Counted from the stretch's first letter, positions 1,637 to 59,962 are shown. The stretch: DNA of 64,000 nucleotides from Marsupella aquatica (GCA_973895155.1 OZ316897.1:21303455-21367454), one strand, 5' to 3'. Numbers and translations are program-made. The notes: generated from the sequence alone by a model not told the origin.

Positions 1637-1656
1637 TAGAGTCCCACCCTTGTTTT

Positions 1657-1674
1657 TGGCGCCGCTGCCGGGGA
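1657..1674 (+). promoter_or_regulatory. Primer binding site, tRNA-Asp type
   Basis: TGGCGCCGCTGCCGGGGA, one mismatch from the Athila-type tRNA-Asp PBS TGGCGCCGTTGCCGGGGA. Confidence 0.85.
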
Positions 1675-1780
1675 CAACTCTTTACAGTTTTTGTTGGAGT
1701 GGAGCCACAAGACTTGGAGGTGTGTTTGCAGGTTTGCTGTTCAAGAGAAGAAGGGAGATAAGAAGGTGATTGTGAGTGGC

Positions 1781-7759: not shown

Positions 7760-7799
7760 GTGTGTTTGCGGGGACGCTGCACACTTAAGTAGGGGGCTA
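7757..7799 (+). promoter_or_regulatory. Hairpin and polypurine tract of gypsy-1
   Basis: TAAGTGTG...CACACTTA inverted repeat (7757-7787), then AAGTAGGGGG-CTA directly before TGTGGGA. Confidence 0.75.
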
Positions 7800-18926: not shown

Positions 18927-18931
18927 AACGA

Positions 18932-30918: not shown

Positions 30919-30965
30919 TACCTACGCTTCCGTTCTAACTTCATATCTCACGGCTTAAGAAATGC

Positions 30966-37580: not shown

Positions 37581-37957
37581 AAATCTAGGTAGTGATGACT
37601 GGATTCTAGATAAACACAGTGACAAACCAAATGAGAAGTGTGACCACCAAACAAGAAGTGAGTTTTTGATTTTGCGAAAAACGGCAAAAAATCACTAAAA
37701 TTAAGATCAAAAACGCTATTTTGAGGATGAATCCAAAATCGCATCCAACATCGGATTTCAAATCGTGATACTGTCGACACAAAAATAAAGAATTGTTACA
37801 TTCCAAAATTCCGAGACACTTCATCTAAAAAAAGGGCAAATTCCAAAATCTAGAAAAACAATGCTTTTTAGGTGATCCTTCTAAAAGCTAAATCCGAGCG
37901 TCAAACAAAACTAGGAAAACACAAGATTTCATTTTTGCAATCAAAATGGCAAACTGA

Positions 37958-40647
37958 AAATGGGATATGGCGTATCCCATTTCGGATTCAACCGTTGAAC
38001 GTGAAAGAAAACCACACCAAATCATTCTCTTGACGCTTCCATTTAACCTTGGGTTTAAAATATTTGAATTTTTAACTGCGGTAAAACTAAAAATTGCAAA
38101 AACTTGACCGCAGACTACAGTCGACCCACACAGTTAGTTAAGTTAACTGGACGATATTTTTGAAAATATTTTAGCCCATAACGCATGATGAATACAAGAC
38201 GGGATCCAAGTATCCACTCTCGTATTCAACCTCAATGATTTCCACCTGCAACTTTGCATCAGGAGATCTTTCGACATGAATACCAATTGAGATCCATGGA
38301 TCCCATTTTTTTTGCAAGTCCAAAAACTCATCGGGAAAACAGGAGGATGAACTAGTATCGCATACCTTGATATTCTAGTTTGAAGACCAATTGGGATCCA
38401 CGACGACTTCCTAACAAACCTACAATTTAAATTTCAGCATTCCTTGAAAAGACAGACTCTCACTTTAAAAAACCCTCGTACGGACCAATCAGGGAATGCC
38501 AATAAGGATCCACGTATCTCATTTTTCTAAACAAGTCCAAAAATAACCCACTCAAAACCAAGGATGAATACCAAATGGGTGTTGAACTAAGACGTCATTC
38601 GCAACGACCATACAACCATGACTTATTCCATGCACACGTAGTCGACACAATCTCTACGTGGTTCACCTCTTCTCCAAGGCTACGTCCACGCAAACACTCA
38701 AGCTTTACTTCAAGAGTAAACGAACATACATGCTCTCCCTCTTCCTCAAGTTGCTCCGTCACAATGAGTAAGCACCACACACCAGCGGCTTACACTAGCC
38801 CTGGTATATTCAAGGTCACACACGACTTATCTAACCTCAGCTAAGACCCTAACTGTGGTTAGCCTAAGTGTCGTAACCTTTGAGTCACAAGACTAAGAGC
38901 AATCCTTAACAATGGGATCCATGGAATCCCATTTGGTATTCGCCTGCCAAAATTTACCCTTGCCGCACCTTGCACCTTGATATTGAGGTTTGAATACCAA
39001 CACGGATCCACGGATCCCATTTGGTATTCACCCGCCAAAATTTGCAATTGCCACACCTCGCACCTCAATATTGAGGTTTGAATACCGACACGGATCCATA
39101 CCGACACGGCTCCATGAGTCCCATTTGTTGATTCAACTCCAAAACAATTTTGGATTTTTCCTTGCTCAGCATAATTCCAATTACATCCATTTTTTACTCT
39201 TTCAAAATATGTAGGACCAATCAACAGACCTACCTAAAGTGGGTTTGTGGATCCCACCTCAGATTCAAAGTCCCGAATTGGCCCTCGGTTACAAGTCACT
39301 CATCCATTTTCACATTTGAATACGAAATTGGATTTCATTTGGTCTTTGTAAAATTCTTATCACTCTTTGTAAAGTTCTTGATTTGTAAAATAACATGTTC
39401 TTATACCAAATGGGATAAAACAACATGTTCTTATACCAAATGTGGGATCCATGGATCCCACTCGGTATTCATACAAGGTTTTATGACTTTTTCCTTTCTA
39501 GATTTGTGAAATAACATGTTTGAATATTACATGGGATACTTGGTATCCCACTTGGTATTCCTCTTGAAGTTTTGATCATTTGTGATCTTTTTACAAATGC
39601 AATCTGATTTTTTTGCGAGATTTTGCCTGATCTCAGATTTTTGCTTTTTCTATTTTTGCGGCGCCGAGTAAAGCAGCCAAAAAATCTCAAGCTCTTCTTT
39701 CTAACGGTATCAATTATAAGGAATTTGGATAAATACCGATAAAGATATGGCTTCCAAAGCGTGAGAGGGTACAAACTTAAGTTTTTGTAATTTTATAATT
39801 TCACCCCACAACTTAACCTGATCATATCTTAGTCAATCTTGCATTTTGCACCTAAATGCTTCATATTCAGAGGTTGAATGCAAAGTGGGATACCTCGTAT
39901 CCCACTTCGCATCGGATAACCTCATTTTTTCACGTTTATGATATCCAAACTGGATTTTTGAAGATTGAATCCCAAATGGGATACGCCATATTTGGACCGC
40001 CATTAGACTCACAAGAGAAAATGTTGTTTTCCCAGGAAAACTAAAGCTTGAGTCGGTGTCTATCACTGAACGACAACAAGAGCTTCAGTGCGTGTTTAGT
40101 CAAACTGCGTCTGCAAAACAATCAGCAATCCATAAGACTTTTCCCATCATTCCAAGAAAACTCTAGGTAGATACCACATGGGATACCCCATATCCCACTT
40201 CGCATCCAACCTCCTTTTTTAGCTAAAGAGAAACAAAAATTGGACATTTGAAGGGTGAATCCCAAACGGGATACGCCGTATCCCATTTGGGATTCGTCCT
40301 CGCCATTTCCATAAAGATTCTCACCTGTTAGTCAAATCTGATTTTCAGGGAATACGAATTTGTATAGACGGTGTGTATTTGTCGAGAGGAAGAGGATACG
40401 GAGCGAGAAAAAATGAGCGGAAATTTTCAAGCGGGGATCTCCTATTTATAGTTTTCTCCCTGATCATGGTTAGTTCTTGACTACAGTTGCATCGCAATCG
40501 GTTAAATATTACTGTTGATAAGAATTGTTTGGGAATATTCTTAACGGGTAAACCAATATCGGCACTTTTACTGCGTTTGTTTTATTTTTTTTGGAATTTT
40601 GCGGTTGGATCCGAAATGGGATACGCTGTATCCCATCTTCGTATTCG
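37958..40647. repeat. Dispersed ~40-bp palindromes (consensus ~GAATACCAAATGGGATAC-nnn-GTATCCCATTTGGTATTC)
   Basis: About 15-17 variably decayed copies, e.g. near 37958, 38190, 38278, 38991, 39435, 39521, 39876, 40170, 40256 and 40607. Confidence 0.8.
38580..38911. mobile_element. Solo LTR (332 bp)
   Basis: TGTTGA...TTAACA flanked by a perfect TSD ATGGG; it splits one palindrome copy in two. Confidence 0.85.
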
Positions 40648-42243: not shown

Positions 42244-42594
42244 CACTAGTGGAAAATAGTGTCCTTAATGACTAGAATGAGGACTGAAAAACGAGTCATA
42301 TGTACCAATATATGACTAGAGCTTTTCTATCATACCTGCCTCATCTTTTAGGACAGTCAATTAAGACAAATGACTAAAACTCTCACCAGTCATTTATGAT
42401 AGTCCTAAATGACACAATATTTCTGAAATGACATGTTGTCCTAAATGACTGAATGAACGGCCGTCAGTCATTTAGGCATGTCTTTAATGACACATATTTA
42501 AACAAATCATATTACAACACGTGGCAACTACGCACGGTTGTCATTATATGTCATTTCAGACATGTCATAAATGACACAATAATAAATCATTTAA

Positions 42595-42921
42595 GGTGTC
42601 ATTTAGTGTGTCATTGAAGGTGTCGTACATGGTGTCATTAAAAATGTCATACAAGGTGTCATACAAGGTGTCATTGAGAGTGTCATATAAGGTGTCATTG
42701 AGAGTCATTGAGGGTGTCATACAAGGTGTCATTGAGGGTATCATACATAGTATCATACAGGGTGTCATATAGGATGTCATACAGGGTGTCATTGAGGGTG
42801 TCATACAAGGTGTCATTGAGGGTGTCATTGAGGGTGTCATACATGGTGTCATTGAGGGTGTCATACATGGTGTCATTGAGGTTGTCATATATGGTGTCAT
42901 TGAGGGTGTCATATAGGGTGT
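42595..42921. repeat. 12-bp tandem subterminal repeat (GTGTCATACAAG / GTGTCATTGAGG)
   Basis: About 27 units visible directly; explains the repetitive ORFs at 42565-43063. Confidence 0.9.
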
Positions 42922-43028
42922 TTTTAAGTAATGTCATTTGGAATGTATCTAAGAAGAGCTCATAGTTATATTCAAAATCACATACAATGAATTCACTTAA
43001 AACCCTAAACAAAGACATCACTTTGTGC

Positions 43029-43172
43029 ATCATCATTGTATTCAGAAATTCACACTCCAACATTCACAAGCTCTAATATAGAATAATTGAAAAAACAGAA
43101 ATCATCATTGTATTCAGAAATTCACATTCCAACATTCACAAGCTCTAATATAGAACAATTGAAAAAACAGAA
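43029..43172. repeat. 72-bp tandem duplication
   Basis: ATCATCATTGTATTCAGAAATTCACA... starts at both 43029 and 43101. Confidence 0.9.
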
Positions 43173-43280: not shown

Positions 43281-44204
43281 TCAACACTTCCGAAGAAACC
43301 TAGCATTCCACAATGTATTCATTCCTAACACATTCCGTAAACAGAGTTGTTTCTCTTCTTTGTTGGGCATTGGCAATGTTGCATCACCACAATACACTGC
43401 CTTAACTGATACTCGCACCCAAGGACTCTCAATCATGACACAATGAAATTTATCCTCTCCTGGTAACCCTGTCACTTCACCTCTAGCAACAACTGTAGAG
43501 CGATCCACAACGCTTCGTACTTCTACAGCATCTCCTTTTGAAAACTGCCACACAAAATTGTTAGGACAAAATACTGTCTTGTAGTACTGATTTGAGCATA
43601 TCATCAATTTAAGAACATAAGCCAACTGAAAACAAATTCACCTTTGCTGCTGGATTTGGGGAGAGAATTGGTCCTCGTTCACTAGGTGAGATAGTGATAG
43701 GGGTTGATTTCTTGAATCTCTTTGAAGGCCTAGGTGGTGTAGCCTCTAGTTCCTAAATTGCATTTGACACTATCTATTCATCTGTGACAGCAATCTCATC
43801 ACTCTCACCATTACCAATGCTGCTTTGTACAACGCAAGGTTCCTGCAGTGCTCCCAAATTTGCTTCTCCCATACTTGGCTTTGGCTTCTACCTTGTTAAA
43901 GTATCTGATTTCTCTCGTTGTGATACAGGATTCTCCCCTGAAGAAGCTACCACAAAACCAAACAATGAATGCTTAGAAAACTTCATTCTAAATTGAAAAA
44001 TAAACTATTGCATATGTAATATATTTAGAGTATAAGTTTGTATGTTCTTACCATCACCATCACCTGAGAAAGTAAGAGAACGTTTCCTGCTACTACCTTT
44101 AGGCTCAACCACCACCTTAGTAGCAATTGCATTTGATAATTGCATATGAAACTGATTCTGTTGATTTTGTGCAATGAAAGAGGTCATCATAGATGTCAAA
44201 TTGT
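43281..44204 (-). pseudogene. 3' exons of CACTA TnpA-like gene
   Basis: Last exon VVARGEV...FHCVMI...VRVSV...LPMP...LG...LW resembles the Tnp1/En/Spm C-terminal domain. NLTSMMTSFIAQ continues KLEFKVDNL from 57788 across the MULE. Confidence 0.7.
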
Positions 44205-44320
44205 GAGGAATTGTACGGTGCGAGGAAACAGGAGATTTTGCTAGCGAGGCAACATTGTTAGCGAAGCATTCTGGCGGATACATTTATCTCACATTCCATG
44301 AAAATAATGCCCAAACAGTA

Positions 44321-46757
44321 TGTGACGCCAATGACATGGTCCTTATTTTGTAACCTGATTAAGTAGGTTGCTGTATGCAAGGAGTAGCTATTGATATTGC
44401 ATAACAATTAGCAAGATGGCAAGAATAAGGGCAATCATGGCGTTAAGAGTAGGGAAATAAAAGCTATGTCGCGGGTGGTCGACGACCATATCTCTTTCAA
44501 TATGTCACCAAATCCGGATCTGTAAAGAGCATTGGAAAGATCTGGTCAAGGCGAGTAAAATCGATATAAAACACTCGAGAAACGGAGGTGTATTAAGAAA
44601 GATACGGCCTGATTAGTGTGACGGGTTAACTTGTGGCCGAAATTAGCGAATTCGGCTTCAGTTTCGGGTTAACCCAAGCTCGACCACGGCTTAGCTTATG
44701 TGAGCACGGCTTCAGCTTAGCTCAGGTCAGCACGGCTTCAGCTTAGCTTAGGTAAACACGGTTTCAGCTTAGCTTAGGTAAGCACGGCTCCAGCTTAGCT
44801 CAGGTCAGCACGGCTTCAGCTTAGCTCAGGTCAGCGCGGCCTCAGGTTAGCATAGGTAAGCTCGGGTTCGGGCTAAGCTTAGGCTAGGTTAGCGGACAGC
44901 GGATAGCGGATAGCGGGTAGCGGCCTAACCCGAGACCACGGGTTAGCTCTACTCGGGTTAGATAGGATAGCTAGGTTAGCCGAACTCGGGTTAGCTATGT
45001 AACTCGGGTTAGCGCAGCAGTGAGTACCCCCTCTCGGTTGCGGGGGCATAACTCTCTGTGTATTTGACCAAATCGGCTATAATTGACCTCGTTGGAAAGA
45101 GGAGCTCAAGCCGCTTCCAACGTTGCTATCCACGCAGAAAATGGTTGAATAGAGAAATCGGGAGAGGAGGCGCAAGCTCGCAAAAACCATGGAGGAGGGC
45201 CAAATCCGAAGTACATAGCCAATTCGAGATAGAAATAAAGTTGCGAGTTAGGGTTCAGTAGTTAGAGATAGTGGCGGCTCTGTTAGGGCTGGGATGGGGC
45301 TCCAGCAGCGTAGTATCCACCCATTTGGGCTCAATATGAGAGTATATAGAGCAGCCCCCCGGTAGAGGCAAGGGGGGGGACTTCAGTTGTGTGATCTCAC
45401 TTAGACTGAGCAGCAGGGAGGAGCTCTGTGCAAGCAAGGCTGGACTTGGACGCTGCGTGTTGGGGAGAGCTTGGTTGTGCTATTACTCAAGGAGTAATCA
45501 GCCAAGCTTCACAGCAACGGGTTGCTAGGTTTGCGAGCTGGATTGTGGCTCTTTCTAGTGGGCAGCACAACTGGGTTCTTTTCCCCCGATATAGAGCCTT
45601 GGTGATAGGTGATGTATTGGTGATTGTAAACTGTGGGGAGGATTTCAATTCGATTTGCGGTGGGCACATTAGGGAGGCTGAGATACTGATTAAGGGGCAG
45701 CAGGAGGAGCATTTACAGTTCAGTCTGGCAAGGCTACGTGATCCATGGGGAGTCCCGACCTTTGTCTGGTGGAGAGCACTAAGGGATCTATGGCCAGAGC
45801 TAAGCTTGCAGGGCAAGCGTGAGGCCGGGCCTCATTGCAGTCTGGGGTAGATCGCCGTTAGGCCTGGTACCAGCTTTGAAGTCAAGTCAACTATGCATGC
45901 GTAACTTGACGTTCTGAATTGGAGGTGCGAGATCTGTATGTGCCCCCAAGAATGAAATGCAGTGAAGGAGGTTGAGTTCAGGATTGAGTTTGCAAGGCAA
46001 GTACGGGATTGGTTTGAGTCCAATCTGTCGTCGCAATCTGGAGTGAGCCGGGCTCAGGTTCAGGATTGAGCTTGCATGGCAAGCATGGGGCTTGCGGGGC
46101 AAGCACGTCACAATCTAGAGTAGACAGCCTTCGGGCCTATTGTTCGGATCAAGTGTTCTCAGTGAACTATTGTGCACATCTTTGAATCTAATTGAGTTTT
46201 CCTCTCAGGCCTCATTTCTCTCATGGATGTGTGTGTGTGTGAGGCAATCTGAGTGTATGATGGGACTAGCAGCGCCATTGAGAGGTGTATAGGGTGCATT
46301 GAAGCGGGCTGGGTGAGGACTGTCATAGCTCTGATTGCTGAGAGTGGAATGGCAGAGTGGTGGGGCAATGGCTTAGAAGTCCCTAAGCCAGGAATCAGTC
46401 AGGAGTCACTGGTTTATGGGTATATTCCGGCGGCGGAATAGAAATATACCTATGACAGTAAGCATACGTATAGACCTATGTGCACCGTAGCGCTAGGCCC
46501 TGTGTGTACGGGCCCGATATGAAGACCCCTTATCACCAGAAATATCATGAGCACGGATCTGATTCCCAACCTTGGTTCTTAGGGATTGAGCTTGGGTGAT
46601 GTGTGACGGAGTCTTGTTATGATAGTCTGGTGTTAAGGGCATAAATTGGTGTTTACCGGCCTTCACAGCATCCCTTTGTGATCCTCAGGTACAAGGAGAT
46701 GGTTTTGGCACCCATAGTGACGTCTTTGGTGTTAAGACCCATGTCAATCGCGTGACA
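44321..46757. mobile_element. Probable solo LTR (2437 bp) nested in the MULE
   Basis: Same termini as 14909-18926 (TGTGACG...CGTGACA), flanks CAGTA/CAGTC, and shared motifs CGGTAGAGGCA(A)GGGGGGG and GGAGTCCCGACC. Confidence 0.7.
44703..44858. repeat. 26-bp tandem repeat x6 (AGCACGGCTTCAGCTTAGCTCAGGTC)
   Basis: Seen directly, with decayed copies on both sides. Confidence 0.9.
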
Positions 46758-47453
46758 CAGTCTCAGTTTTCCACCTCTTACAATAATGAAAAGAATATGA
46801 CAATGGAAAATCCTGCATGATTTTCATAAGTATTCCATACTTGAGCCACACACGATTTAATCATCTAAAAAGGATCACCAAAACTAGAAACTCCCATCAA
46901 ATTATGGAACCTCTTTACATTGAAAGTGTGGATCGCCAACAACTTCAAGACAGAAAAACGGTAAGAGTCAACCTCGACCAGTACATCCAGTCCTACTTCC
47001 TCTTACTTGATCAGTCATAAACTTCATCCTCTGATTCATCGGAGATGTCACTACTACTAGGATCGCTACTGGTCTCCCTCTCCGTGGACTCGGCAGACTC
47101 ATCTAAATACTGACGGACTGTCCCCGCCTCATTGTCGATAAACCTTGAACAATCCAGATATCTTCGAGCACCTCTCATGGACCGAAGTCCTTTCGATTCC
47201 CAAGTCAAGATAACAGGATCTTCATCAACCTGCCTCGCCGATGTCTCAGCATAGCACGGAAGAGTAAAAGGCTTCTCAGGAGTAACCACAATGGACTCCT
47301 GGACTTCCCTCCGAAGACGAAATCTCTCCTCAGAAAACTAATCCACCCTCCTATCACTGACGCAACCACCGACATCAGTTGACGAAGAGCAACAAAATAA
47401 AGAAAACAAAAGAAACCAAATAGGGAGTCCGACATCAGAAGAGGCCAAGTACT

Positions 47454-50400
47454 TTACTCCAGGTCGAATTCGTCTTTCTCGCTTGAAGGCCCAGCCTGTT
47501 CATCCCTTGGAATCGTGAACTCATCATCCGACCCAGCGTCTTGATTAACCTTGGCTGGCTGATCCCTAATCTGCTTTGCCTTGCTCAAATGCCTCGCCAA
47601 AACACTGTTTAAAGTTTTTTCTGCACAGCAATGGAGAATGTCCCTGTCTTCAACACCGACAACAAATCTCCCGGAGAATTCTCCGGCAGAAAACGAGCTA
47701 CCGTCACACACAGTCCAGTCAAGGACTATGTCTTTGGGTTTTGTGAGGAATTCCATCACGGCTTGCATGAACCCAATTGAAAGCCTTTTCGATCCAGCAA
47801 CAGCCGCTTCTGGACAAGGGTCAGTCTTAGGGTAACAAACACTCAACATTGACTTATGTCTTGCATCTTTCGAAGACGTCAATGGAACATACGCTGGGTC
47901 TTTAGGAATCTTTGCACTAAATTCCACCCAACAAAAAACATCCAGGATGAGAGTGCACACCTGCATAAAAACCAAAATACATCAGAAACAATGCTAACTT
48001 TGTTAGCGAGCTCGCTAGCATTAACTTAGTCGGAAAATAGAAAATTAACACCTAAACAAGATATGTTTGGTAGCTGAAAATTATAATTTTGTTAGCGACA
48101 TCGCTAGCATTAAAACTCTCAAGAAATTTAAGGGATAACTACCTCAATATCCATATCTGCCCTCCATAAAGGGGTGGACAACAAAACGGTATATTGCTGC
48201 ACATGTTTGAATTTGTTTTTTTGCTCGACTGCCGTAAATATTTGCCTCATGTGATTGAAGTCTGTGCTGTGCAAGACAACAACATATCCGTCGTCTGAAA
48301 GCATTGGTCTCATCACTCCAAAAAATTAATATGAGAGTTTCTCGCTCCAAACATTCCAAGACGGAACCTGTTTGTCTGTAACGCTTGTTCTATGCCCAGT
48401 TGGAAGAGAAATGAATCCCAAATGTGCTCCAATCCCAGCATAAGGCTTTCCATTAATTACGACATGGTTCGGGCACTCTACGCTCTTCGACATCCCAGTA
48501 ATCCATCGATCTCCATCTCCCATCCAAGATGGCCTCACTTTACTTATGCTAATTGAGTTTGCAGTATCGGTCAAATTGCTACGAGCCAGGAAATGTCGTT
48601 GCCCATCCATCTTCAAACCACACATCCAAGCAACACCTTGAGCAACTGAAACTTCCTCATCGTCCGCATCTAAAAGAATCTGGATGTTCCGCTTCCATTT
48701 CAAACGTTTTATACTTCCTAAATCCAATGCGCTCTTTGTTGTGACTTCGGCATCTGGGGACTGAGGTTCCTCACCATCATCTGCTCCACTCTTCAAACTC
48801 TCAGAAGCCGCTCCCTTCCTCCTCTCTGTGAAGCAAAAGACATTAGTGTCTGTATATTCGACACACATCCAGACTTAAAAATAAAAAGTAACATACAATT
48901 AATAGACTTACTTGGCTTTCCGGAAATCTGGGACCCATCTTTGGATTTGTCCTTCAATGCTCCTTTTCTTGGCTTCCGTGCTCGACTCCTATCCACTATG
49001 GCAGCTACACCAAGACAAGCTTTTTCCATCGCCTCGCAACCACCAACTTCAGCATCAGTGGGTGCCAATTTGGACTCGGAGATGTAAGATTCCGGAAGGA
49101 ATCCTCGATTGATCATGTGAAGAGCTGCTTTCTCTGTAGTGTCAAATGTCACAGACCATTTGTTCGAGTCCAAATACCATGGACAATGAAGAACCTCCCA
49201 CTCGCTCAATCTCCTTGGAGCTTCACTTCCCTCGCAAGGAAATATACAATATTCCCCAAACTTATCACTTGTAGGGTCCTCTTTAACCCGGGCTTTAACC
49301 CCGGCTATCCATGGGGAGAAACAGGCTGGGTAGGACCACCAATAAAATTTGTCTGCTACTTCTCTGTCTACAAAAAATCGATACGTGTATCTCTTCGCTC
49401 TCCTCCGAAATAATGTAATGTCTACCTTCTCTCCTGTCTTGGGTGGCCAAATCTGCTTGAAAAAATGAGTTTTCACACGAGTTTGGAAATCCTCAAAATC
49501 CTCCTCAATGTCAAGGATTAGCGAAGCTTTTGTCTTCTCTGAAGACGTAAGGATCCTCGACTCAGGGACAGTAGGCATTACCTCAAAAACAATTTCAGAC
49601 ATGAGGGAAGACGAAATTGACTCGACTTGCTCCCACACTGCCCAACGATGAAGCCAAAGCTTAGTCTCACCATCTGAGAATTGACCTGGATGAAAGAATT
49701 TTTTCCGAAGCTCAGGACGACACTGTGCCTCCAGGAGTGTACATCAGAGCTCTGGGGATAAAGAGGTCACACCAGTGAACAATCGAGCTTGATCAAGACC
49801 ACAAGAAACATTTCCCCTGCCTTTGTCATCTGTTCTCTGGGCCTCCTTTCTCTTGTTCTCGCAGTAGTTATGCATTTCGACACATTTCTTGAAAAAGTCT
49901 CCAAACTCAGGATTTAGTAATGGACCGATCTTTGGAACTTTCACATTCCAATCAGCAAGTTGTTCTTTCATCATGTCATGCATTGCTAAGTCCTGTGCAG
50001 CCTTGGAAAGGGGCTCGCCTTGAGCCTCCTTAAGAGCAAATTTCTTCTTAAGGTCCTCGGTCTACGATGCAATGTTAGCAGCGGATAGAATATAAGTGCA
50101 GGCATCCAACGTCATGTTCTTCGAATACCATGCGGCCTTCCGCAAATTGGCCATCTTCTACTGGAAAAGTTTGTAATTCTCAGCGTCGATGATATCTTTG
50201 TAAATGGATAAGTCATTGTTCAGAATCTTCTGGACGCGTTCAGCCTCCAAAACCCAGGAATTCTCTACATGACATTGAGTTAACCTGCCACAACATGCCT
50301 CATGTTAGCGAGATCGCTAGCTGAAAGTGACCTGGTAAAAATGAAATTTCAGAACTATCTTATCATGAGAAGTCCCACCTGTTCAATGCGTGCATAGCCG

Positions 50401-51154
50401 ACTCGATCTGAACGAAAGAGTTCTTTTCACCCTTAAAGATCTTGCAGACCACTCGAGGATGGTACTTAATATCATCCGGATGTTCCTCCGCCAGTTGGCT
50501 CCACGAATACAATCGGTGGTTTCCATCGAAAACATAGAACATTTTGTCCTTGAGGATCTGGAAAGAAACATGAGAATCACATTCGCGCTCAAACTCCTTG
50601 TTTTGCAACACCCAAATATCATCCCAAGTTTCGCGGATGGCATGTGTACAGATCTGGATTTCTCCATCCTTGTTTGTCATCTGAACGTAAAATCGAGGCG
50701 CATCCTCGATGTAACCCTGCATTTTGAACTCGGACTTCAATGTGTCTATCGCAGTGGAATCCTTCTGCAGAGACCGGACAATCTGCATGTTTCTCATCCG
50801 GCATAGAGGAATTCGGGTGGGAGCCAATGCAAATCCAAACTCATTCACTCCAAACGAGTGAAGATGACGGTTTATGACAACCGTGTAAGGTTCCAAAGCG
50901 CTAGGATCAAACACAAGAGCAACTACGTCTACCGCTGTCACCATCTTGGGCCGCCTTGGAGTCTTCAATCCCGCTGCAAGCGCTTTCTTGTTCGCTGTGG
51001 ACCTAGTTTCTCTCCTTGTCGACTCCCTAGACTGAAACGATCCTCTCAAAGAAATACTCTCTGGAGACAACGATGACTCCATGAAATAAAACCCTTCGGA
51101 GAAGAGTGCTTGAGCCCGAAGACTGCAGCGGCTGCACGCGTCAAAAACGTCCAT
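47454..51154 (-). pseudogene. Spliced gene: ParB/Srx-like N-terminal domain plus C-terminal N4C/N6A DNA methyltransferase-like domain (~1100 aa)
   Basis: Inferred exons 51154-50379, 50284-48912, 48825-48143 and 47960-47454 with GT-AG borders. ParB-like IPLCRM...VRSL...IDTLKSEFKMQGY...FYVFDGNHRLYSW. MTase-like AHLGFISLPTG...RPMLSDDGYVVV...FLTKPKDIVLDWTVCDGSSFSAGEFSGRFVVGVE. Three stops in exon 2 and a frameshift near 48325. Confidence 0.7.
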
Positions 51155-51760
51155 AGAGCACCTCCTTTCGGAGAATTAGGACAGCCGTACAAACTGCTAT
51201 GAACTCCCTCCGAAGCCTTACAGAGTTACGATAGTGAATACTGACAACGATCGACAGTACGATGTAAGGAATAACAGAAATCTCCTGGCAGGGACCACTA
51301 GTTGTACTTTTTGGAAAACATGAAGAACAACCTTCACGACCGATAATCTTATCCAGACAAAATACTCCAGGTGTCCCGTGTAATTTGTACCGTTGACATT
51401 ATGGTACCCGTTGACTATTCCCAACGGAATCCTAACGGTAAACTTCCTCAAAAATCAGTTTGACTTTTTGGCTAGTGAGATCGCTGGCATAAACTCAATG
51501 ACACAGGTATCCTTAAAAGAGTTGAAATCAACGGTTTTCTTGCCATAAAACTATCAAAACCAAGCTAGCGAGATCGCTAGCATGGGAGACGTCCCTATAC
51601 GTTGAGTAAAAGACAAAATAACGGTAAAATCAACGGGAACGAACTGACAATCTGTTCGGATTGTTGTTTCCGTTGGGAAAAACCCAGTTTTGGTCCTACA
51701 AATAGAATTCGTATGGGAGATTCAAAACATAGTGGTTGTATTTTTGTATGCTGAGAAGAG

Positions 51761-54700
51761 ATGATGTCGATGAATTCCAAGGTGGTTTTGGAGCGTAGAA
51801 TGATGGGAGACGTGGTGGTACTCCCAAGTGCCCCTAACTCGTCGGAGGTTAGGGTGACAGAGTCATTCCTTGCAACTCGTTTTGGAATTCCAAAAGATGA
51901 CCTTGTCATGAAGTTGTTTGAGTTGTATTCTCAAAATGGGCCACGGAGTCACGAGTTGAGAGAGGACAGTAGTACTTCCGGGAAGGTCTGGACGCTGAAG
52001 GTTGGATCTTGTGTCGAGGTTCTGTCCAGTAAAGATGGTTTTCCTGATGTCATTTTGGAACCCATGGAATTAGATCCCGTTCATCAAACTCCTATGATTG
52101 ATCTTGGGACGCCTCCCAAAGACAGAGCTCCCGAGGTCATTGAAATATCTCCAGAGAGTATAAGGCAAGACACATCTTGTGGTTCGATGAAGTCACGAGA
52201 TGGTTCCGAACCCGAAGGGTTAGCGACAAATTTGATTGAAAGGACTGGGGATAGCATGACCACAGTGTATCAGATGAGTGCCTATGACGCTTTTCTCAAT
52301 ATCAGTGGAGCGAGTGAACTTGCACAATTTAGAAGAGGGAATCAATGGAATGAATGTCAGGTTTCGACTCTGCCATCGACATACAATGGTAACGTTGTTT
52401 TTGAACTTCCTCCAGTCGAGTGGGGCGGGAGGGGAGGAGGTCTCCAAGATATGGATCGAGAGAAGGACAGCTATCCTTGGACGAGACTAGTGACTACATC
52501 TGCGAATTTGAAGCCAAGGTTTCATTGGGCTGTGTCGAAAGTTTGTTGCGCTGGAATTCTTGAATGCCATAATTTGGGTTGCCGGAAGTTGAAACATACT
52601 GGAGTGAAAAATGACTGCGCTTTCAGAGGGAAAGGGTTGTTGACTGACATCTTTCGTCTTGGAGAGCAAGTGAGTGAGGGAGGACTTGTCTGTGGCTTCT
52701 GTGAAGAGAGGCCTCTCTGTATTTGAGAATGCCCGGCAAAACTGTTGTATGTGTACCCTAAGCAAGGTTTGGAGAGTCACATTTCAATGCATATGTCCAG
52801 ATTGGCTGTGCATATGGGATTCCATGATCACCCTGTTTGGAAGGGAAAATCTCGTTCTACGAGAAAAACAGCGGAAGATGTGGTTTTAGGGGTCCATCGG
52901 TTGAATCCAGTCTCAACTCCCGCACGTCTGAGAAACCAGTCAATTGGGAACCTTGTCTCACTATTGCATCCAGAATCATCGGCTCAGTTGTCGAGAGAAG
53001 AACAACAAGAAATCGGAGTAGTTTCTACCGCTCCAAAGTTCCAACCTATTCTTCGGAGTGTGAAGATGGATAATCCTAAAAAAGGAGAACTTGACTCACT
53101 TCATGAAATGCAATCACGTAACAATTTCCCTTTCGTGCAAAGGTACCTGTTTCCCGGTCAAGGAAACAGAAATGATCGAGCGCATGTATTCAAAATGAGT
53201 ACAAATGGTCCTGGATCGGGTGTGGAAATTTTGAGGAGCATGGAGGCTGGAGGAGCATTGGAAGGTTCGTGGGTCAGTTTTGACGTGATGCATCGTATCA
53301 CTAGTGGATGGTTGACCTTCAGCGCACACGTGTATGACCATAATTACCGCGCTTTGTGTACAATTTTCACTTGCGAGTTGAGAGCCGAAGACATAGAGTT
53401 GCTTGAAACTGCGTGGAGGTTAATGGTAGATGTCGCATCCAAGAATGGAGTGCATAATCCCATTATTGGAGGATTCATAGCAGACAATGCGGAGGCTGGC
53501 TGGATTTCTGTGAGAAGGGTATTTTTTGGAGGTGTCAGAAATCCTCTGAAAGAGCATAGTGATGCTTTCCATCTCTCAATCCCTCAGAAGACACACTTTG
53601 GAGGGGATCAAGGAGGGGTGTCATGCGGAGCACTATAAGATGTGGGAGAAGTTAAGAATTGCTCCAACATACGTCGAAGCATATCGTATCGCCGAAGACA
53701 TTCAAAAATGGTGGAAAGAGGGGAATTGTCACCCTTCCAAGCTTAAATCACTACAAGGGTGGATTTCATGGTGGGTTGTGTGGTGGAGACAATGGGGTAA
53801 CTTTATTCGTGTGGTGAGTAACGGTGAATTCTTTCTGATGAGTTTAAGCTAACGAGATCGCTAGCAATAAAACTTCTTTTCATAAATGTATTTTGGTCAC
53901 CGACTGAAACATTAGACTGTCTCAAAATAGACATATCACTAGTGAATACAAGTGTTAACTCTGCTCATTTTTCAGACGCAAACTGCGAAGGAGTCTGCTC
54001 TGATGCCAAACTGTGCGGGAGCTAAATCTGCTCACGCATCAATGCGTTCCTACCAGCTGAAGAAGAAAATTGGTTTGATTGAAGCCTATGAAGTTGACCA
54101 GAATCGAGCAGCTGGACAGATTGCAGCGTTCACTGCATACTTGGAAGGGTGTCACCGTGGGAATGGTCCTACAATATTTGAGCTGGCCTTCAGAAATGCA
54201 GATACAATGGGGTCTATGGATGCCTATGAGAAGGCATCCAATCTACTATTTGAATCATCTGGAAAATATGAGTTCTATAGAACTGTGCCTTTACATGGAG
54301 ATCTTAGAACAACGTCAGGGAAACGGAAGGGTAGTGCTTCTGCTTCTATTCATGAAAACGATTCTCATAGACATGATAAGATATTGCGCACAGTGGCGTC
54401 GCGGTCTAGTTTGAAAAGAAGAAATCTTTACACAAAATTTGGTAACTTCAGCGGTGCTTCTGATATTGGTGGACCTTCAGACTTTCCTGGCGATGAAGAC
54501 AACCCCACTTGCCATGGACCTTCTCTTCCTCGTGAAGTTATAAATATATCAGATGATGGTGAAGAACTTAGCCGTGGAGATACAACACAGGACCCGAACT
54601 ATGTTGGAGAAATACCACAGCCTCAAAATAATCGGGATTCACCCCGAAGGATCCCTTTTGTTGAAGAGGTTGATGTGACATATGGGACCTGGCACTTGAG

Positions 54701-55538
54701 GCGGAGTGGAAAAGGGAGTGGACCTGTTTGCAATGGACGAGTGGACCGAAGTGTGTTTGGAAGAGATGAGTGCAGGAATCTCATCAAAGAAACTGGAATG
54801 AAGGCATTCCGGGCTGGAGTAGTTGGTGTTGCGATTCACGGATTGAGGTTGTCATCTCCACATTGTCAGCTTCTATACTTCTGTCCGAATAATAGGTGCC
54901 ATAAAACAGGTGGCAAAAGGACTCTTGCCCAGCTTCCGGAACCACCTGAGGCATTGCAAGTCCAACATGGGACCAGGCTGACCCCAACAGAGATTGACTT
55001 TCTTCTTCGAAATGGGATTGAAATCAGAGGATTATCATACTCTGATCCAGCACCGATTGGGTCGTTCTCCTCTCCAAATCGTGTTGACCTCCGAATTGAT
55101 GTGAACTCCTTCCCAGAAAGAGTTGACATTGGTATTCCAAACCGTAGATTCAAGACCCGGAATGGGAAAGGCGTTCGTCAACGTTTCCAGAACACCCCGG
55201 AGCTTCTCAAACGCATTCGATCTACGACTAACGAACATATGAGAGTCATTGGAAGTGAGAAGATATGCCTCGGAAACAGGTGGGGATGGCAATATCTTAT
55301 CGTCACTCACGAGACAGATTCTAAAATTGCACACAAGTAGTGGGTCCAAGTGTGTTGCTTTCCTTCTTGCTCATGTGATGACTTCTACAAGAGACACACG
55401 AGAGGAAGACCCTATATGTCTTGTAAACACCTCCTCTGGGTGTACTTAAACAAGTTCTCACTGAATCTAGACAGAGACGATCTTGTGAAGCAGCCAGTTC
55501 TGACTGTTGCTGAAGTAAGGAGTTTGATTCCGTTGTAG
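51761..55538 (+). pseudogene. Mutator-like transposase with GCM-like zinc domain and C-terminal SWIM finger
   Basis: CAGILECHNLGC...CGFC...ECPA...GFHDHPV (GCM/WRKY-like), WVSFDVMHR...GFIADNAEAG...AFH (MULE catalytic core), CSCDDF...CKHLLWVY (SWIM). Intron 53814-53975. Stop at 52724 and frameshifts near 53575 and 55340. Confidence 0.8.
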
Positions 55539-56448
55539 TGTAGTTGACTTAATCTCTATTATCCGTTGAGGTGAACGTTTCAGCGTCCCTAATTTTGTCG
55601 CCTTTTTGGTTTTCAGAACAGAGGAAAGTCCTCCACCTCACTAATTATATTGTGTATGCAATGTTAGCGAGGGTCTAGTACTATTCTATACGTATCGGCA
55701 ATAGTGTTTATTTTTCTAGCGATGTCTCTGGCATTAAACCCGTAAAGTAAGTTTTAGGTTTCCCGTAAACGGTTTCTTTTTGACCAAGTTCTACATAACG
55801 TAGAGTTCAATAACTCATGTATTTTAATTGTTTTTGGGATATACATTCGAGAAAACAAACCATTTTAGTCACGCATAGTTTTACTAGCGATGTCGCTAGC
55901 AAAACTAGTACTGTAAGTCCAAACATTGCAGTCGGCAGTCTTCTCAAGAAGTTATTTCAAAATGAACAAAGATGTTCTCCCTTACAACTGTGTTGGACAT
56001 TGAGTGTCGAAGAACTTTTTCAGATCCCAGATCTACAAAATAGACACAGTCTACAAAATGTTTATGCCCCTACAACATGGACTACCGTTACTGTTTCCTA
56101 TTCAAGGGCTCGCTGCCTTGTACGCATCGGAGTCAGAGTCGGATACTGTATCATAGTCGGAGGAAGCGAGGATGTTTTCCGTGCTCGCATGTTATCCACA
56201 ACGGAAATCACTCAAGTACCAATAGGCAATATTTACTAGCGATCTCGCTAGCAAGGTATGCACTCATGAAATTGAAAAAACTTCCGAAGCTTTATTCGAA
56301 TATTGTCCAATATTTATCAAAACATCTGTAACTGACAAAATGTCCGTGTCCTACCGATCATTTCATTTTAAGGTCACGGACTTGGCAGAGATTAATTGTA
56401 AAACTACAGGGGTTCGCAACGCGGAGTGATTGTTGTCTAGGGTACTAT

Positions 56449-56877
56449 TCATGGAGATGCTGCCTTGTAGGCATCTGAATCTGTGTCCGAATCTGTATCA
56501 TAATCGAACGAAGCGAGGATGTCGGATGTCCAGTAGTTGTGTATGTCAATGTCCCTCCAGTAAGACTCCTCCTCCTCTCTCTTCCGCTTCTCTGAAACTC
56601 CCTTAGAAATGGATACGTTTGTGCGAGAAGACATTGGTGCTCTGGAAACAACGCTTGAAGTTGTTTCCTTCGGCGGTGCAGGTCGCTGAGTTGAAGCAGA
56701 GGCAACAGGCGGGACCCGACTGGATGATGATCCAGCCTTGAGCGGAGGGGTAACACTCTTCCTTGCCGGAGGAGAGCTTGGTGGTGAGTCCACTGGGCCG
56801 TCAGTTTCGGCGTTGTAGCGGCGGACCTCCAGAACCCATTTGGGTTTTGGAGCGGAAGGGTCATCATTTTTTGCCAT
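56449..56877 (-). CDS. Hypothetical 142-aa Pro/Ser-rich protein inside the MULE
   Basis: ATG-initiated ORF, GC-richer than its flanks, with basic EKRKRE and an acidic tail. No recognisable domain. Confidence 0.35.
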   Translation of the reverse strand: MAKNDDPSAPKPKWVLEVRRYNAETDGPVDSPPSSPPARKSVTPPLKAGSSSSRVPPVASASTQRPAPPKETTSSVVSRAPMSSRTNVSISKGVSEKRKREEEESYWRDIDIHNYWTSDILASFDYDTDSDTDSDAYKAASP

Positions 56878-57787
56878 TTATGTCTGTAACAAACGCTTCT
56901 GTGTATCAGATTACTTTCTCAACATGTGTTTACCAAATAGAAACAGTCACATTCAAAACATCCAAGCTCATCAAGTCAAAACGCGCAAAACTACGAGAAG
57001 GAAAAAGAGAACTGGGAAAACCAGACTTTCTCATGAACAATAATACTATTTGTTGTGAAGAGGTCTTCCCGTATCAAACTTACATCTCTTTGTGCGACAA
57101 AAACTTTGCAAGAATGCGACACACCCGAGAACACCAGATCCCCTCCTCGCCCGCGGATATGACAACACAAGCTCAATTGAAGTTACTCTGCGATGCGAAG
57201 ACGATCACGAAAGAGTGAGGAGACGATGAAAGTCAAATAATGAGAACACTGTTAGGAATGGAGATGAGTCGAGAGGTCCGAATGACATATAGTGCATTTT
57301 CGGAGCCTCAGATCCTCTCAAACAGTTTCGCGTTTCACGCTTCACTCATGAGGAAGGGGACATTGGATTCCGTCGTGATATGATACGGCTTAGTGCTGTT
57401 GCTGCAACGGTTTACACCCATGATTACTAATGAGTGATTTTCGTGTGTCATGACCGCACGGAGTATTTCGTGCGAGAATGATGGGCAGAGTTATGGCTAG
57501 CAACTTCGCTGGCCTGATGTACTGTAGAATTATATGTTTAATTATGGTGCCGTCGACGACCGTTCGTGTCCAGGGAATACATAATATGTACCAATGCATC
57601 GTCGGGGTCGCTTTTTAAACCCAACGGGAGTTAAAATAAATAGGTGGAATAGAAGGTTCCTTTTAGGCTAGCGAGTGTCACTTTTTGCTAGCAAGGTTGT
57701 TTTCGTGCCAAATTTTGGGTATTCCAAGGAGAAAATGATCCCGTGTGAGGAAATTTTTTACTGTTTCCTCGCACGCTACAATGACCC

Positions 57788-59880
57788 TCAAATTGTCCAC
57801 TTTGAACTCAAGCTTGGTTAAATTCTCCACAGACTGTTCAAGCTTGAGTAATCGAGCTGGTTCCTCAATTGTAGTTTCCCTGGACAATGGAGTCTACATA
57901 CACAAACACACCATACAATGTCAATCATCAATGATAATTTGAACATCATGGATAACTGATAATCAAAATTGAATATATACATAGGTTTTCATTACATACC
58001 GCTGATCCATGTGCAGATCCAATTCCAACAAAACTACTGCCTCGATGTTCACCACTGCCCATAGATGGACTGATCTGCACTGGGGGGACTGGACTACTAG
58101 ACACAAGTTTTGATATAACAGGGCTCATCATTCCTTTTGCTTTCTGGAAACACATAATCACATTCAAAGCAATTAGAATATTAATGAGAACTCATCATGT
58201 CATTGTTTATTCCTATACTAGATAAACACTTCAATTCAAATGACAATCTAGACCTGTGGTGAGATGGACCATCTGAAGATTCTTACCAATTTTTTTTCTG
58301 CTCCAGCAGCCCCTCCTCTTCCAAAATGCTCTTTGTTCACCACTTCTGCCCTCCTTGCTTTCATCACAACACTCCTTGCAAGCAAAGTAGGACTATCAAA
58401 ATGATCCACCGGTCGTGCCCATTTCAATGGGTCAACATATTGAGGTCCTGGTTTGGAGCGATCATGTTTACATACATCCTTCCAATAAATATTTAGTTTG
58501 TGACGTTCTCTTTTCAATAACGTCCGACAGTGACTAATAAATTTCTTGTCAGACACTGACTGCTTATCTAGATACTCCCAATCTGCCTCCATCAATTTTT
58601 GCACATCCTCAATTATGTTTGGATCTTGTTTGTTCCAATCAGGTTCTGATACATCAAAAAGCCTCAAGACATTGGCACGTAGCTCCTCCAATCCAATATG
58701 GTTTATTAGGATGAGAATCATCAATATCATTGTCATGAATCTGAAAAAAACACCACAAATGATAGTCATCAACATTGGGAATGAAACAAACACCCAATTG
58801 TTTCTGAGTACACGAATTATAGGCCACAATGTGAAATGTGCAATGAAAATCTTACCGTTATCAATTTTCCCTTCTTATTGTCAGCCCTTCTTGCACTACC
58901 GGTTCTTTGAAATTGTTTCTTGGCTTGCCTAGATTCCCTACGTTGCTCTGTTGCAGTCTTTCTTTCCTCTACATACACAATGAGCATCCAATATTGATCA
59001 TCCACAATTGCAAAATGAGGGACAAGAAATATTACAATATAATACCTAGGAGGCTTCATTGAAATTGACTTACCTGAACCCTGACTGGATGTCATTACTG
59101 CAGAGTGTCCAGATTTTCCAATCGATGTTGATGGAACCACCACTCTACACATGCAAACCACTGAAGTTTTGAGTCCAACATTCATATAGATCAACATTGA
59201 AAAATACATTGAAAATCTTTGAAATTACTTACATTCAAATAGCTGGCCAGTCACAAGGTCTTTGTAACATTGCACCATGCCACTCATGGAAGGTCCAACC
59301 TTTGTAGGGGTTTCTTTTGCATCTGCCAAGCTCTTAGATGGAGGTTGCAGATGTTCCTGTCCAGATCAAGTTAAAACCAATGTTATTAAACAGAATCACT
59401 ACCAATGTCTATAGTTTCCTCATAATGTTGGTGAAATGTAATAGGAATCTCACGTTGGATGAACTTTCTGGTTTCTCATCTTCACTGTACTCAGCATCAG
59501 TGTCATAATCTGATTCAGAGCCCTCATCACCAGACTCTGCCATACTCACTGAGGCAATTCTTGATAGTCTGGAACTCTGTCTCCTCTGTGTGGTAACCTC
59601 ACTTCTAGGAGTTTGACGTGCACTTGTTTCCTTCTTGCCCCCTACGGTCTGTGTTGCACCCAGTCTACATCAGAGAATATCAATTTATGAATGACAAGTA
59701 CCCAAAACCAACTAATATTGCTGATGAGCAATGTTAACACATCTTTGCACATTCAAAACAACATGCAAGATTATACTCACATGAAATTGAAATTTGATCC
59801 AAATATCTCCCTAAATTTTCTATTGTTGGCTGCTACCTTCTGATTTCGTTCCTCCTCATATGGAGGTATTCGCTGCATTC
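57788..59880 (-). pseudogene. 5' exons of CACTA TnpA-like gene
   Basis: Multi-exon region. W...LKRERHKL...P..VDPLKWARPVDHF...ARRAEV...HFGRGG resembles En/Spm TnpA-type proteins. Exon limits approximate. Confidence 0.6.
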
Positions 59881-59962
59881 ACTGCTAGACCATGGCATGC
59901 CATGTTAGTATGATCCCACTTCCAACTAAATGAAACTGGACTGTACAATATCTTCAAACCAT

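Follow-up and report, generated by a model that had tools for sequence, protein, structure and literature searches.

On the minus strand of a 64,000-nt stretch of Marsupella aquatica DNA (GCA_973895155.1 OZ316897.1:21303455-21367454; this whole stretch is called the window here and all positions are counted within it) a four-exon gene was located at 47457-51154 by means of stop-to-stop open reading frames (ORFs) and inspection of the sequence. This gene is probably a decayed accessory gene of a 13.6-kb Mutator-like transposon, whose product would join a ParB/sulfiredoxin (Srx) domain to a degenerate methylase-like domain and would recognize its own element, likely at a palindrome, rather than act as a canonical N6-adenine/N4-cytosine methyltransferase. 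In the following, the gene and its two domains are described first, then the element that carries it and its copies, and finally the explanations that compete for this arrangement.

Structure of the gene

An earlier, sequence-only reading of the window had proposed a four-exon gene at 47454..51154, and the motifs that it quoted are all present on the minus strand where it had placed them: YVFDGNHR at 50513-50536, HLGFISLPTG at 48395-48424, RPMLSDDGYVVV at 48275-48310, TKPKDIVLDWTVCDGS at 47697-47744 and GRFVVGVE at 47649-47672. The exons and introns fit as well, with reading frames that are compatible across all three GT..AG introns; a further homologous coding piece (47014-47337) lies outside the proposed interval. 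The ATG at 51154 is not retained in other genomic copies (51154 T>C), and four in-frame stops mark the copy as a pseudogene, which that reading had not seen. The features of the gene are:

50379..51154, minus strand: exon 1, predicted ParB/Srx-fold domain with the motifs IPLCR, GY, W..W..F and FDGNHRLxxW (GxxRxxA)
50285..50378, minus strand: intron 1, GT..AG, 94 nt, with one copy of an 18-bp palindrome inside
48912..50284, minus strand: exon 2, family-specific middle region, three in-frame stops
48826..48911, minus strand: intron 2, GTAAGT..CAG, 86 nt, frames match across the junction
48143..48825, minus strand: exon 3, comprising a linker, SLPTG as the motif IV-like stretch (48395-48409) and the strand RPMLSDDGYVVV, interrupted by an in-frame TAA (48328-48326)
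47961..48142, minus strand: intron 3, GT..AG, 182 nt, with two copies of the 18-bp palindrome inside
47457..47960, minus strand: exon 4, methylase-like motif X/I region (TKPKDIVLDWTVCDGS...GRFVVGVE), stop codon TAA at 47456-47454
47014..47337, minus strand: probable additional 3' exon, homologous to the family, encoding an acidic tail in which LPCYAE and FIDNEA occur

Among 1.84 billion representative proteins, exon 1 retrieved 244 proteins at E ≤ 1e-3 and 84 at E ≤ 1e-10; a search against longer proteins only gave no match at E ≤ 1e-3. The long named homologues, all of them predicted proteins, come from the liverwort Riccia sorocarpa (1191, 1207, 906, 901 and 864 amino acids (aa)), in which full-length copies are multi-copy, and from Adiantum ferns. 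The Riccia protein P0153 (1207 aa) is collinear with four minus-strand pieces of the window, namely exon 1, two parts of exon 2 and exon 4, and the 3' exons are collinear with the full-length liverwort proteins of 1191-1207 aa. Over 47014-51175 nine minus-strand ORF pieces match family members, compared with zero pieces of the other frames. All four ORF pieces of exon 2 match collinearly, and because the piece between its two TAG codons also matches family members, this stretch is coding and not an intron; a metagenome relative with 52% identity (locus L003) remains collinear through exon 2. In a six-frame translation of the window, a profile of the family's C-terminal domain matched three 3' ORF pieces in order (E = 8.4e-6, 1.1e-3 and 4.4e-3), the first of these values belonging to exon 4, while exon 3 was covered by profile positions 136-174 and 185-234, again in order. 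The junction between exons 1 and 2 (ALN R/LTQCHVENSW) aligns with Riccia NLNASSHATVQYDW. As to the probable extra exon, the piece at 47014-47337 matches Riccia P0174 (E = 3.3e-4) and the family C-terminal profile (E = 0.08), and its counterpart is a tail YRLPxYAE...FIDDEA found in several Riccia homologues. Among the contigs of four public runs, which represent multi-copy DNA, no joint matching an intron was found. The predicted full-length Riccia proteins and the collinearity of the window with them support the view that the ParB-like and the methylase-like parts would belong to one gene.

UniRef labels several of the Riccia sorocarpa members (P0151, P0153, P0154 and others) "Trimethylguanosine synthase", and one chimeric model is named "Profilin" or "Plant heme peroxidase". 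Such names are likely annotation artefacts that arose where transposon genes were merged with host genes.

Domains of the encoded protein

The residues encoded by 50381-50962 were modelled with AlphaFold2 from 112 aligned family sequences, yielding a predicted local distance difference test score (pLDDT) of 93.4 and a predicted template modelling score (pTM) of 0.84. When this model was compared with the PDB by Foldseek, the best 23 rows were all ParB/Srx proteins (ParB, PadC, human and Arabidopsis sulfiredoxin, Noc, KorB and SbnI), headed by ParB-CDP (6sdk, E = 0.056, probability 0.98), and unrelated folds began at rank 41. With VIA-align, a tool independent of Foldseek, 15 of 48,161 chains reached Z ≥ 2, and 11 of these 15 bear ParB/Srx-type names: PadC (Z = 7.0), KorB (6.9), AtSrx (6.3), a serine kinase (5.9), pNOB8 ParB (5.7), human Srx (5.3), SbnI (4.9) and, in addition, Spo0J, BrxU, Osa and a DndBCDE-DndI entry. 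Two more matches, Atu1540 and SspE, we take to be members of the same superfamily, and the two remaining rows (NF1 and SAMT) are unrelated. It is the near-exclusivity of this match list, not the height of Z, that gives the VIA-align result its weight.

The conservation within the 112 sequences is centred on the same region. W117 is found in 112 of 112 sequences, followed by N148 (106/108), H149 (101/108), G147 (100/108), R150 (91/106) and A153 (70/106), and the exon 1 family is strongly constrained at IPLCR, GY, W113, W117, F124 and F-D-G-N-H-R-L-x-A-W. The window itself carries G147-N-H-R150-L-x-A153, and the conserved FDGNHRLxAW presumably is the GxxRxxA nucleotide(-phosphate)-binding signature of the ParB/Srx superfamily. 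The ParB/Srx N-terminus that had been proposed from the sequence is thus corroborated by a confident model and by two structural match lists consisting almost exclusively of ParB/Srx proteins, and the predicted ParB/Srx alpha-beta fold of exon 1 can be regarded as supported. Since sequence-profile searches were blind to ParB, it is only by fold and motif that the domain can be assigned to the superfamily.

For the C-terminal part, the sole sequence match of exon 4 in the PDB was the beta-class adenine methylase M1.HpyAVI/DpnA (5hek, E = 0.19), extending over the motif X/I stretch, and the ESM-feature neighbours of this exon include N6_N4_Mtase clusters with scores of 0.90 and 0.88. Three Riccia proteins score just below the PF01555 gathering cut-off of 26.7 bits (P0151 with 26.2, P0154 with 24.8 and P0153 with 23.7). 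Precomputed PF01555 assignments are present on 4 of 26 Riccia clusters, and some of the UniRef names read "DNA methylase N-4/N-6 domain-containing"; some relatives hence reach the PF01555 threshold, whereas the exons of the window copy are without a match. The PF01555 matches are C-terminal and comprise positions 160-221 of the 221 in the profile. A Foldseek search with a low-confidence model of Riccia P0154 returned 84 matches at E ≤ 1e-3, led by CcrM (5.5e-8), M1.HpyAVI, M.BceJIV, M.MboIIA, the rotifer N4CMT and M.RsrI, then METTL3-14. Along the minus strand SLPTG (48395-48409) precedes RPMLSDDGYVVV (48275-48310) and TKPKDIVLDW...GRFVVGVE (47649-47744), which places motif IV before motifs X/I and is collinear with the family profile. 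The near-cut-off Riccia scores and the Foldseek matches of P0154 support the prediction that the C-terminus is N6/N4 methylase-like and of the beta class, motif IV preceding motif I, in agreement with the sequence-only reading; the fold assignment applies to the family and extends to the window by collinearity.

The catalytic motifs of this domain are altered. Canonical motif IV reads (D/N/S)PP(Y/F/W), and none of the family members seen has it: Riccia proteins carry DLPTG, DMPSG or DLPSG, Adiantum proteins DFPIG or DVPFG, the metagenome loci L007 and L013 DYPEN and DIPEN, respectively, and the window SLPTG. In motif I the GxG is kept by Riccia (DFAGGWGAT), whereas a single glycine is left in the window (DWTVCDGSS) and GxG is also lost in L007 and L013. 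As motif IV is degenerate in every member, the altered catalytic motifs must be a property of the whole family and do not reflect the decay of the window copy. What had been noticed in one sequence thereby extends to its relatives, and inactivity would be the consequence that these motifs suggest.

A tblastn search of P0153 against 50,697 phage records gave 15 matching records, all of them phage DNA methylases (E = 0.03-1), and these matches were limited to the motif I stretch (query residues 1109-1174). A co-match of ParB and methylase did not occur among these phage records, and the phage gene that was checked (Lrm1) encodes a stand-alone methylase of 253 aa. A horizontal origin from prokaryotes or phages is a plausible candidate.

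The element and its copies

The sequence-only reading had surmised that a plant transposon carries the gene, and this was borne out and refined by an empty-site contig, by terminal inverted repeats and by a target duplication of 9 bp. In X2, one of the public runs, a 464-nt contig joins 43864-44195 to 57788-57919 and skips 13,592 bases (its shorter side has 132 letters, and 9 letters fit either side); this contig represents an empty site. Taken alone, the 45-nt inverted repeat I3 was at chance level (exact core of 14 nt, no extension), and the empty-site contig put I3 exactly at the ends of the element. From the empty site, the TCAAATTGT duplication and the terminal repeats the bounds of the element follow as 44205-57787 (13,583 bp). 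The length of the target duplication, 9 bp, suggests a member of the Mutator superfamily; terminal repeats of 27 nt are short beside classic Mu ends. The features of the element are:

44196..44204, no strand: left target site duplication, 9 bp, TCAAATTGT
44205..44231, plus strand: left terminal inverted repeat, 27 bp, GAGGAATTGTACGGTGCGAGGAAACAG, 22/27 identical to the reverse complement of the right end
44315..46760, no strand: nested insertion of a different, higher-copy repeat, absent from other copies of the element
51755..55340, plus strand: transposase-like gene, four listed ORF pieces (51755-52726, 52727-53638, 53550-53852 and 53946-55340), in-frame stop at 52724-52726
57761..57787, minus strand: right terminal inverted repeat, 27 bp, reverse complement GGGTCATTGTAGCGTGCGAGGAAACAG
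57788..57796, no strand: right target site duplication, 9 bp, TCAAATTGT

The gene for the ParB-like and methylase-like parts and the transposase-like gene stand head-to-head inside the element. For the latter, the ESM-feature neighbours are MULE clusters (PF10551, score 0.94, 170 shared features), which is to be taken as a lead only, and homologues were found in Calypogeia fissa and Riccia sorocarpa. Pfam gave solely unrelated rows for the transposase-like ORFs (E = 0.016-0.25, all below the cut-offs). The nested insertion is delimited by joints from 44314 to 46757 and from 44315 to 46761 in the runs X2 and X4, and its summed contig depth in X2 is 7150-7953 vs 231-743 for the rest of the element, i.e. 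about 10- to 35-fold higher (X2, X4). Tandem repeats of 26 nt lie at 44650-44869 inside this insertion. In the right arm of the element an ORF on the minus strand (56449-56877) encodes 142 aa rich in proline and serine without a Pfam match, and a second copy of its 3' end, 79% identical, lies at a distance of 347 nt (56098-56175 and 56445-56522); this ORF may be a third gene of the element or a remnant.

The head-to-head arrangement recurs in metagenome contigs. A metagenome scan with a 12-sequence alignment gave 77 loci with exon 1 relatives (27-56% identity in the best segment), while the same scan with a single protein gave no match. Among the 20 loci with at least 5.5 kb upstream, 10 contain a relative of the transposase-like gene, in every case upstream and encoded by the opposite strand; when near-identical contigs are collapsed, these correspond to 7 of about 14 contexts (L015, L019, L036/38/40, L046/47, L059, L067 and L072/75). 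With Riccia-based profiles, the methylase-like part was detected downstream in L007 and L013 only, where the pieces are collinear and PF01555 is the sole Pfam match (E = 0.004 and 0.02), and the middle region in L003 only. The fusion is consequently verified in few metagenome relatives. Probably the Riccia-based profiles are too narrow for the other loci, and divergence together with short contigs may explain the small number of downstream methylase matches.

The window contains a dead copy of a repeated family. Its four in-frame stops are TAG at 50160-50158, TAG at 50064-50062 and TGA at 49746-49744 in exon 2 and TAA at 48328-48326 in exon 3. At three of them all covering contigs of the four runs, among the rows listed, differ from the window and restore a sense codon (48326 T>A giving Tyr, 49746 A>G giving Arg and 50064 A>G giving Gln). 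The four public runs, which consist of contigs throughout, contain roughly half of the words sampled. On the 4.4-kb gene, short contigs with 90-100% identity map by the hundreds, which identifies it as a multi-copy repeat; X2 alone contributes 481 contigs, 86 at ≥99%, 202 at 95-99% and 193 at 90-95% identity. Between 43500 and 63400 the differences from window to other copies in X2 are dominated by A>G (98) and T>C (70) over G>A (17) and C>T (10), so the window has A/T where other copies have G/C 168 times vs 27 times the reverse. This bias would be expected from the deamination of methylated cytosines in a silenced copy. The window copy is a pseudogene.

A palindrome in the non-coding DNA

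The window contains 11 copies of the half-site GCTAGCGA, where 0.75 would be expected, and all but one of them lie within the element. With at most three mismatches, the 18-bp palindrome GCTAGCGA-NN-TCGCTAGC has 10 sites in the window compared with 0.11 expected, a number that none of 100 shuffles reached:

48002..57513, no strand: span of the ten palindrome sites, at 48002, 48091, 50304, 51471, 51564 (perfect), 53848, 55715, 55883, 56235 and 57496

All ten sites are located in non-coding DNA of the element. Two are in intron 3, one is in intron 1, two (one of them perfect) are in the 600-bp region between the genes, one stands between ORF pieces of the transposase-like gene and four are in the right-hand non-coding part. 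Half-sites furthermore adjoin both terminal repeats. A lineage-specific palindrome scan of 26 long loci showed a clear excess only for L019 and for clustered repeats of L036 and L029. In L019 the region between the transposase-like and the ParB-like gene (7557-8250) contains a 17-bp near-palindrome, TTTCCAACATTTTGGAA, four times (5 matches vs 0.04 expected); these sites may be part of larger direct repeats.

Neighbouring repeats

The element is inserted in another repeat (43500-44195 and 57788-63400), which carries DUF4216 and DUF4218 ORFs on the minus strand at 59963-62038. These families presumably accompany CACTA/En-Spm-type transposons. A 350-nt piece of this host repeat (60870-61221) is missing from another copy, and just to its left a 12-nt tandem array of about 21 registers (42551-42952) and a 72-nt tandem duplicate with 97% identity (43029-43172) are found.

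Further away, an uninterrupted ORF of 2039 aa on the plus strand (1640-7759) encodes a Ty3/gypsy polyprotein (gag, zinc knuckle, reverse transcriptase, RNase H and integrase) and possibly represents a young, intact retrotransposon. A second Ty3/gypsy internal region with ORFs of 1088 and 998 aa (24752-30921) is framed by GC-rich flanks of about 3.7 kb (21025-24702 and 31909-35586, minus strand) with similar long ORFs of 895/329 and 792/182/249 aa that have no Pfam match; both flanks contain antisense ORFs of identical length (216 and 182 aa) and look like very long long terminal repeats with open frames. Copia-type gag, integrase and reverse transcriptase pieces at 13786-14913, 18925-20283 and 35815-36531 (plus strand), separated by other sequence, suggest nested or broken copia elements. 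Finally, a short palindrome-containing unit, AAATGGGATA-NNNN-TATCCCATTT, occurs at least seven times over 2.7 kb of AT-rich DNA at 37956-40645 (families D3, D4, I1, I6 and I9), where it may represent another element's repeat array.

Interpretation

If the window gene is the remnant of an accessory gene, its intact protein would recognize its own element, probably at the 18-bp palindromes. Binding to the palindromes would be the task of the ParB-like module, perhaps in concert with a helix-turn-helix that directly follows it, and the conserved GxxRxxA motif is predicted to bind nucleotide still. The methylase-like domain, its PP-aromatic pocket presumably lost, would then be a pseudo-enzyme or a module that binds S-adenosylmethionine (SAM) or DNA. 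The element could gain from such a protein by anti-silencing or epigenetic marking, or by help in assembling the transposition complex; anti-silencing or marking would be in line with proposals for the algal relatives and with the demonstrated action of VANC, an unrelated protein of VANDAL elements. This specific mechanism, with self-recognition, a methylase-like domain serving as binding module and a benefit to the element, is offered as a tentative proposal. We think it unlikely, in a more far-reaching form, that a ParB/parS-like system operates in a eukaryotic transposon, in which the protein would be loaded in a nucleotide-dependent manner at palindromes in introns, promoter region and ends and the remodelled methylase-like domain would read or shield DNA, leading to a copy-specific protection from silencing.

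Several observations weigh against a self-recognizing accessory protein of a Mutator-like element. At the level of sequence and fold, Pfam gave no relevant family for any window exon and no ParB family for exon 1, both even at E ≤ 1, and the 112-sequence profile found no ParB chain among the PDB sequences at E ≤ 10. Foldseek with exon 1 returned nothing from the PDB at E ≤ 1e-3, the best value of 0.056 being weak, and a VIA-align Z of about 7 is middling by the tool's own scale. A MarR-family match just behind the ParB/Srx domain (E = 0.017) is weak and is the only hint of a DNA-binding part, none being demonstrated. The C-terminal profile detected only DpnA among the PDB sequences (E = 0.28), and the AlphaFold model of Riccia P0154, a homologue and not the window protein itself, is poor (mean pLDDT of 51.7 from 33 mostly Riccia sequences). 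Judged from its letters, the glycine-rich motif I of Riccia (FAGGWGAT) may leave room for SAM binding and even for unusual catalysis. No MULE or other transposase family of Pfam matched in the window ORFs, the 17 homologues or the 9 locus ORFs scanned, and as MULE was never matched, the term "Mutator-like" is founded on the element ends and one ESM lead. The palindrome core TAGCGANNTCGCTA is absent from all 78 fetched loci; given that the window palindrome is missing elsewhere and only L019 has one of its own, a co-evolution of protein and site is not shown, and the palindromes could instead be sites of the transposase.

Among the alternatives, an active enzyme survives best. The intact protein would then be an N6-adenine/N4-cytosine methyltransferase with an unorthodox motif IV, which the ParB-like domain targets to the element to produce a self-written epigenetic mark. 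In its fold and in the order of its motifs the domain agrees with beta-class enzymes, and Riccia keeps, besides the GxG-type motif I, the acidic residue and the proline of motif IV (D-x-P-x-G). This is countered by the loss of (D/N/S)PP(Y/F/W) in every member seen, with the first proline replaced, by the absence of the motif IV aromatic save in one Adiantum protein and by the further erosion of motif I in the window, L007 and L013. In METTL14 a comparable loss (EPPL) accompanies the loss of catalysis. A methylase of unusual chemistry, for which the motif I kept by the Riccia branch leaves room, is the main rival, and we judge it rather unlikely. The algal relatives, for their part, are described in one study as predicted N4-methylcytosine/N6-methyladenine methylases that may modify their own element (PMC12477816), which speaks for activity.

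Quite improbable, in our view, is an arrangement in which the ParB/Srx domain is a nucleotide-dependent enzyme, such as a nucleoside triphosphatase, kinase or nuclease, that aids transposition, with the methylase-like part as a DNA-binding scaffold and the palindromes as transposase sites. GxxRxxA and its neighbours are indeed nearly invariant in the 112 sequences, the structural matches include the serine kinase, SbnI, BrxU and SspE, and palindrome half-sites occur in both subterminal regions. Most palindrome sites, however, are internal (introns and intergenic DNA) and not terminal, and nuclease- or kinase-specific catalytic residues were not identified.

The passive capture of a host or foreign gene fragment by one Mutator-like element in the style of a Pack-MULE, without any role, is very unlikely. 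Mutator-like elements are known to capture genes and the window copy is a pseudogene, yet the head-to-head pair recurs in those 7 of about 14 contexts, which are independent and distant (29-45% identity), the N-terminal motifs are strongly conserved and full-length copies are multi-copy in Riccia. A chance resemblance of motifs in junk ORFs, for which only the missing Pfam match of the window's own exons could be cited, is already refuted by 244 homologues, the collinearity with 1200-aa proteins, a confident fold and coherent structural match lists.

The family members form a natural series in the state of their catalytic motifs, leading from Riccia, in which motif I is kept, to the window, in which both motifs are eroded. 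Together with a candidate cognate DNA site, this series makes the role in the element testable by binding and methylation assays. With regard to annotation, such multi-copy genes should be regarded as transposon genes and not as host methyltransferases like DN4MT1, despite UniRef names such as "Trimethylguanosine synthase" or "DNA methylase domain protein".

Relation to known systems

With the ParB/Srx superfamily (ParB, Noc, KorB, PadC, Srx, SbnI, serine kinase) the window protein would share its fold and, at the turn from strand to helix, the GxxRxxA-type motif FDGNHRLxAW. It differs in being without a Pfam ParBc match and without a demonstrated helix-turn-helix or C-terminal dimerisation domain, and its gene is eukaryotic, spliced and transposon-borne. 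The permuted order with motif IV before motif I is shared by the window family with the beta-class enzymes of PF01555 (CcrM, M1.HpyAVI/DpnA, M.MboIIA and M.RsrI), the rotifer N4CMT and Marchantia DN4MT1, and fold-level matches as well as the similarity of the motif X/I sequence add to this likeness. In contrast to the (D/S)PPY of the beta-class enzymes, the window family has DxPxG or SLPTG. For Marchantia DN4MT1 motif IV is given as TSPPY (bioRxiv 10.1101/2021.02.12.428880).

VANC of the Mutator-like VANDAL elements of Arabidopsis is an anti-silencing protein for which a loss of methylation was shown experimentally (PMC5735166). Like the window gene, it belongs as an accessory gene to a Mutator-like element whose non-coding parts, among them introns of accessory genes and the stretch upstream of the transposase, have accumulated a short element-specific DNA motif. 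The motif bound by VANC is direct, 9 nt long and repeated in tandem, in contrast to the palindrome of the window; no relation in sequence or fold is claimed, and the window system is known from sequence alone.

A literature search for this fusion in land-plant or Mutator-like elements gave algal papers only, most subscription journals and supplements being outside its scope. Fusions of ParB and a helix-turn-helix to a different, Dam-type clade of methylases were described by Iyer et al. for chlorophytes and chytrids, with few N6A methylases in land plants (PMC4738411). In the red alga Bostrychia, a preprint reports PAG2, which combines PF01555 with SET, and PAG3, which combines a ParB-like domain (HHpred e = 0.29) with a 2-oxoglutarate oxygenase; both are placed on Plavaka, Mutator (including Chondrus), Zisupton and Fanzor-type elements, and inverted-repeat arrays beside PAG3 are proposed as binding sites (bioRxiv 10.1101/2025.02.11.637652). 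The same two domain types thus reside on DNA transposons in red algae, but in two separate proteins with other partners (SET, 2-oxoglutarate oxygenase), whereas they would be fused in one polypeptide in the window. The repeats of PAG3 form a tandem array, while the palindromes of the window are dispersed in introns and intergenic DNA.

The closest counterpart is the accessory protein of Sola1-1_Ec32 from Ectocarpus, which has 1104 aa with ParB-like and N4/N6 methylase domains, is encoded opposite the transposase, is likened to green and red algal transposon proteins and is proposed to bind and modify its own element (PMC12477816). In common with the window system, both domains are found in one protein (1191-1207 aa in the Riccia relatives) that is encoded inside the element opposite the transposase, a likeness drawn from the published description. 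Unlike Sola1-1_Ec32, the window element is Mutator-like by its target duplication and terminal repeats and resides in a land-plant host, with relatives in liverworts and ferns, and motif IV is degenerate throughout its family. Since accessory proteins with ParB-like and methylase domains have already been described in transposons of brown, red and green algae, the window gene is a land-plant, Mutator-like and catalytically degenerate variant of this recently described class.

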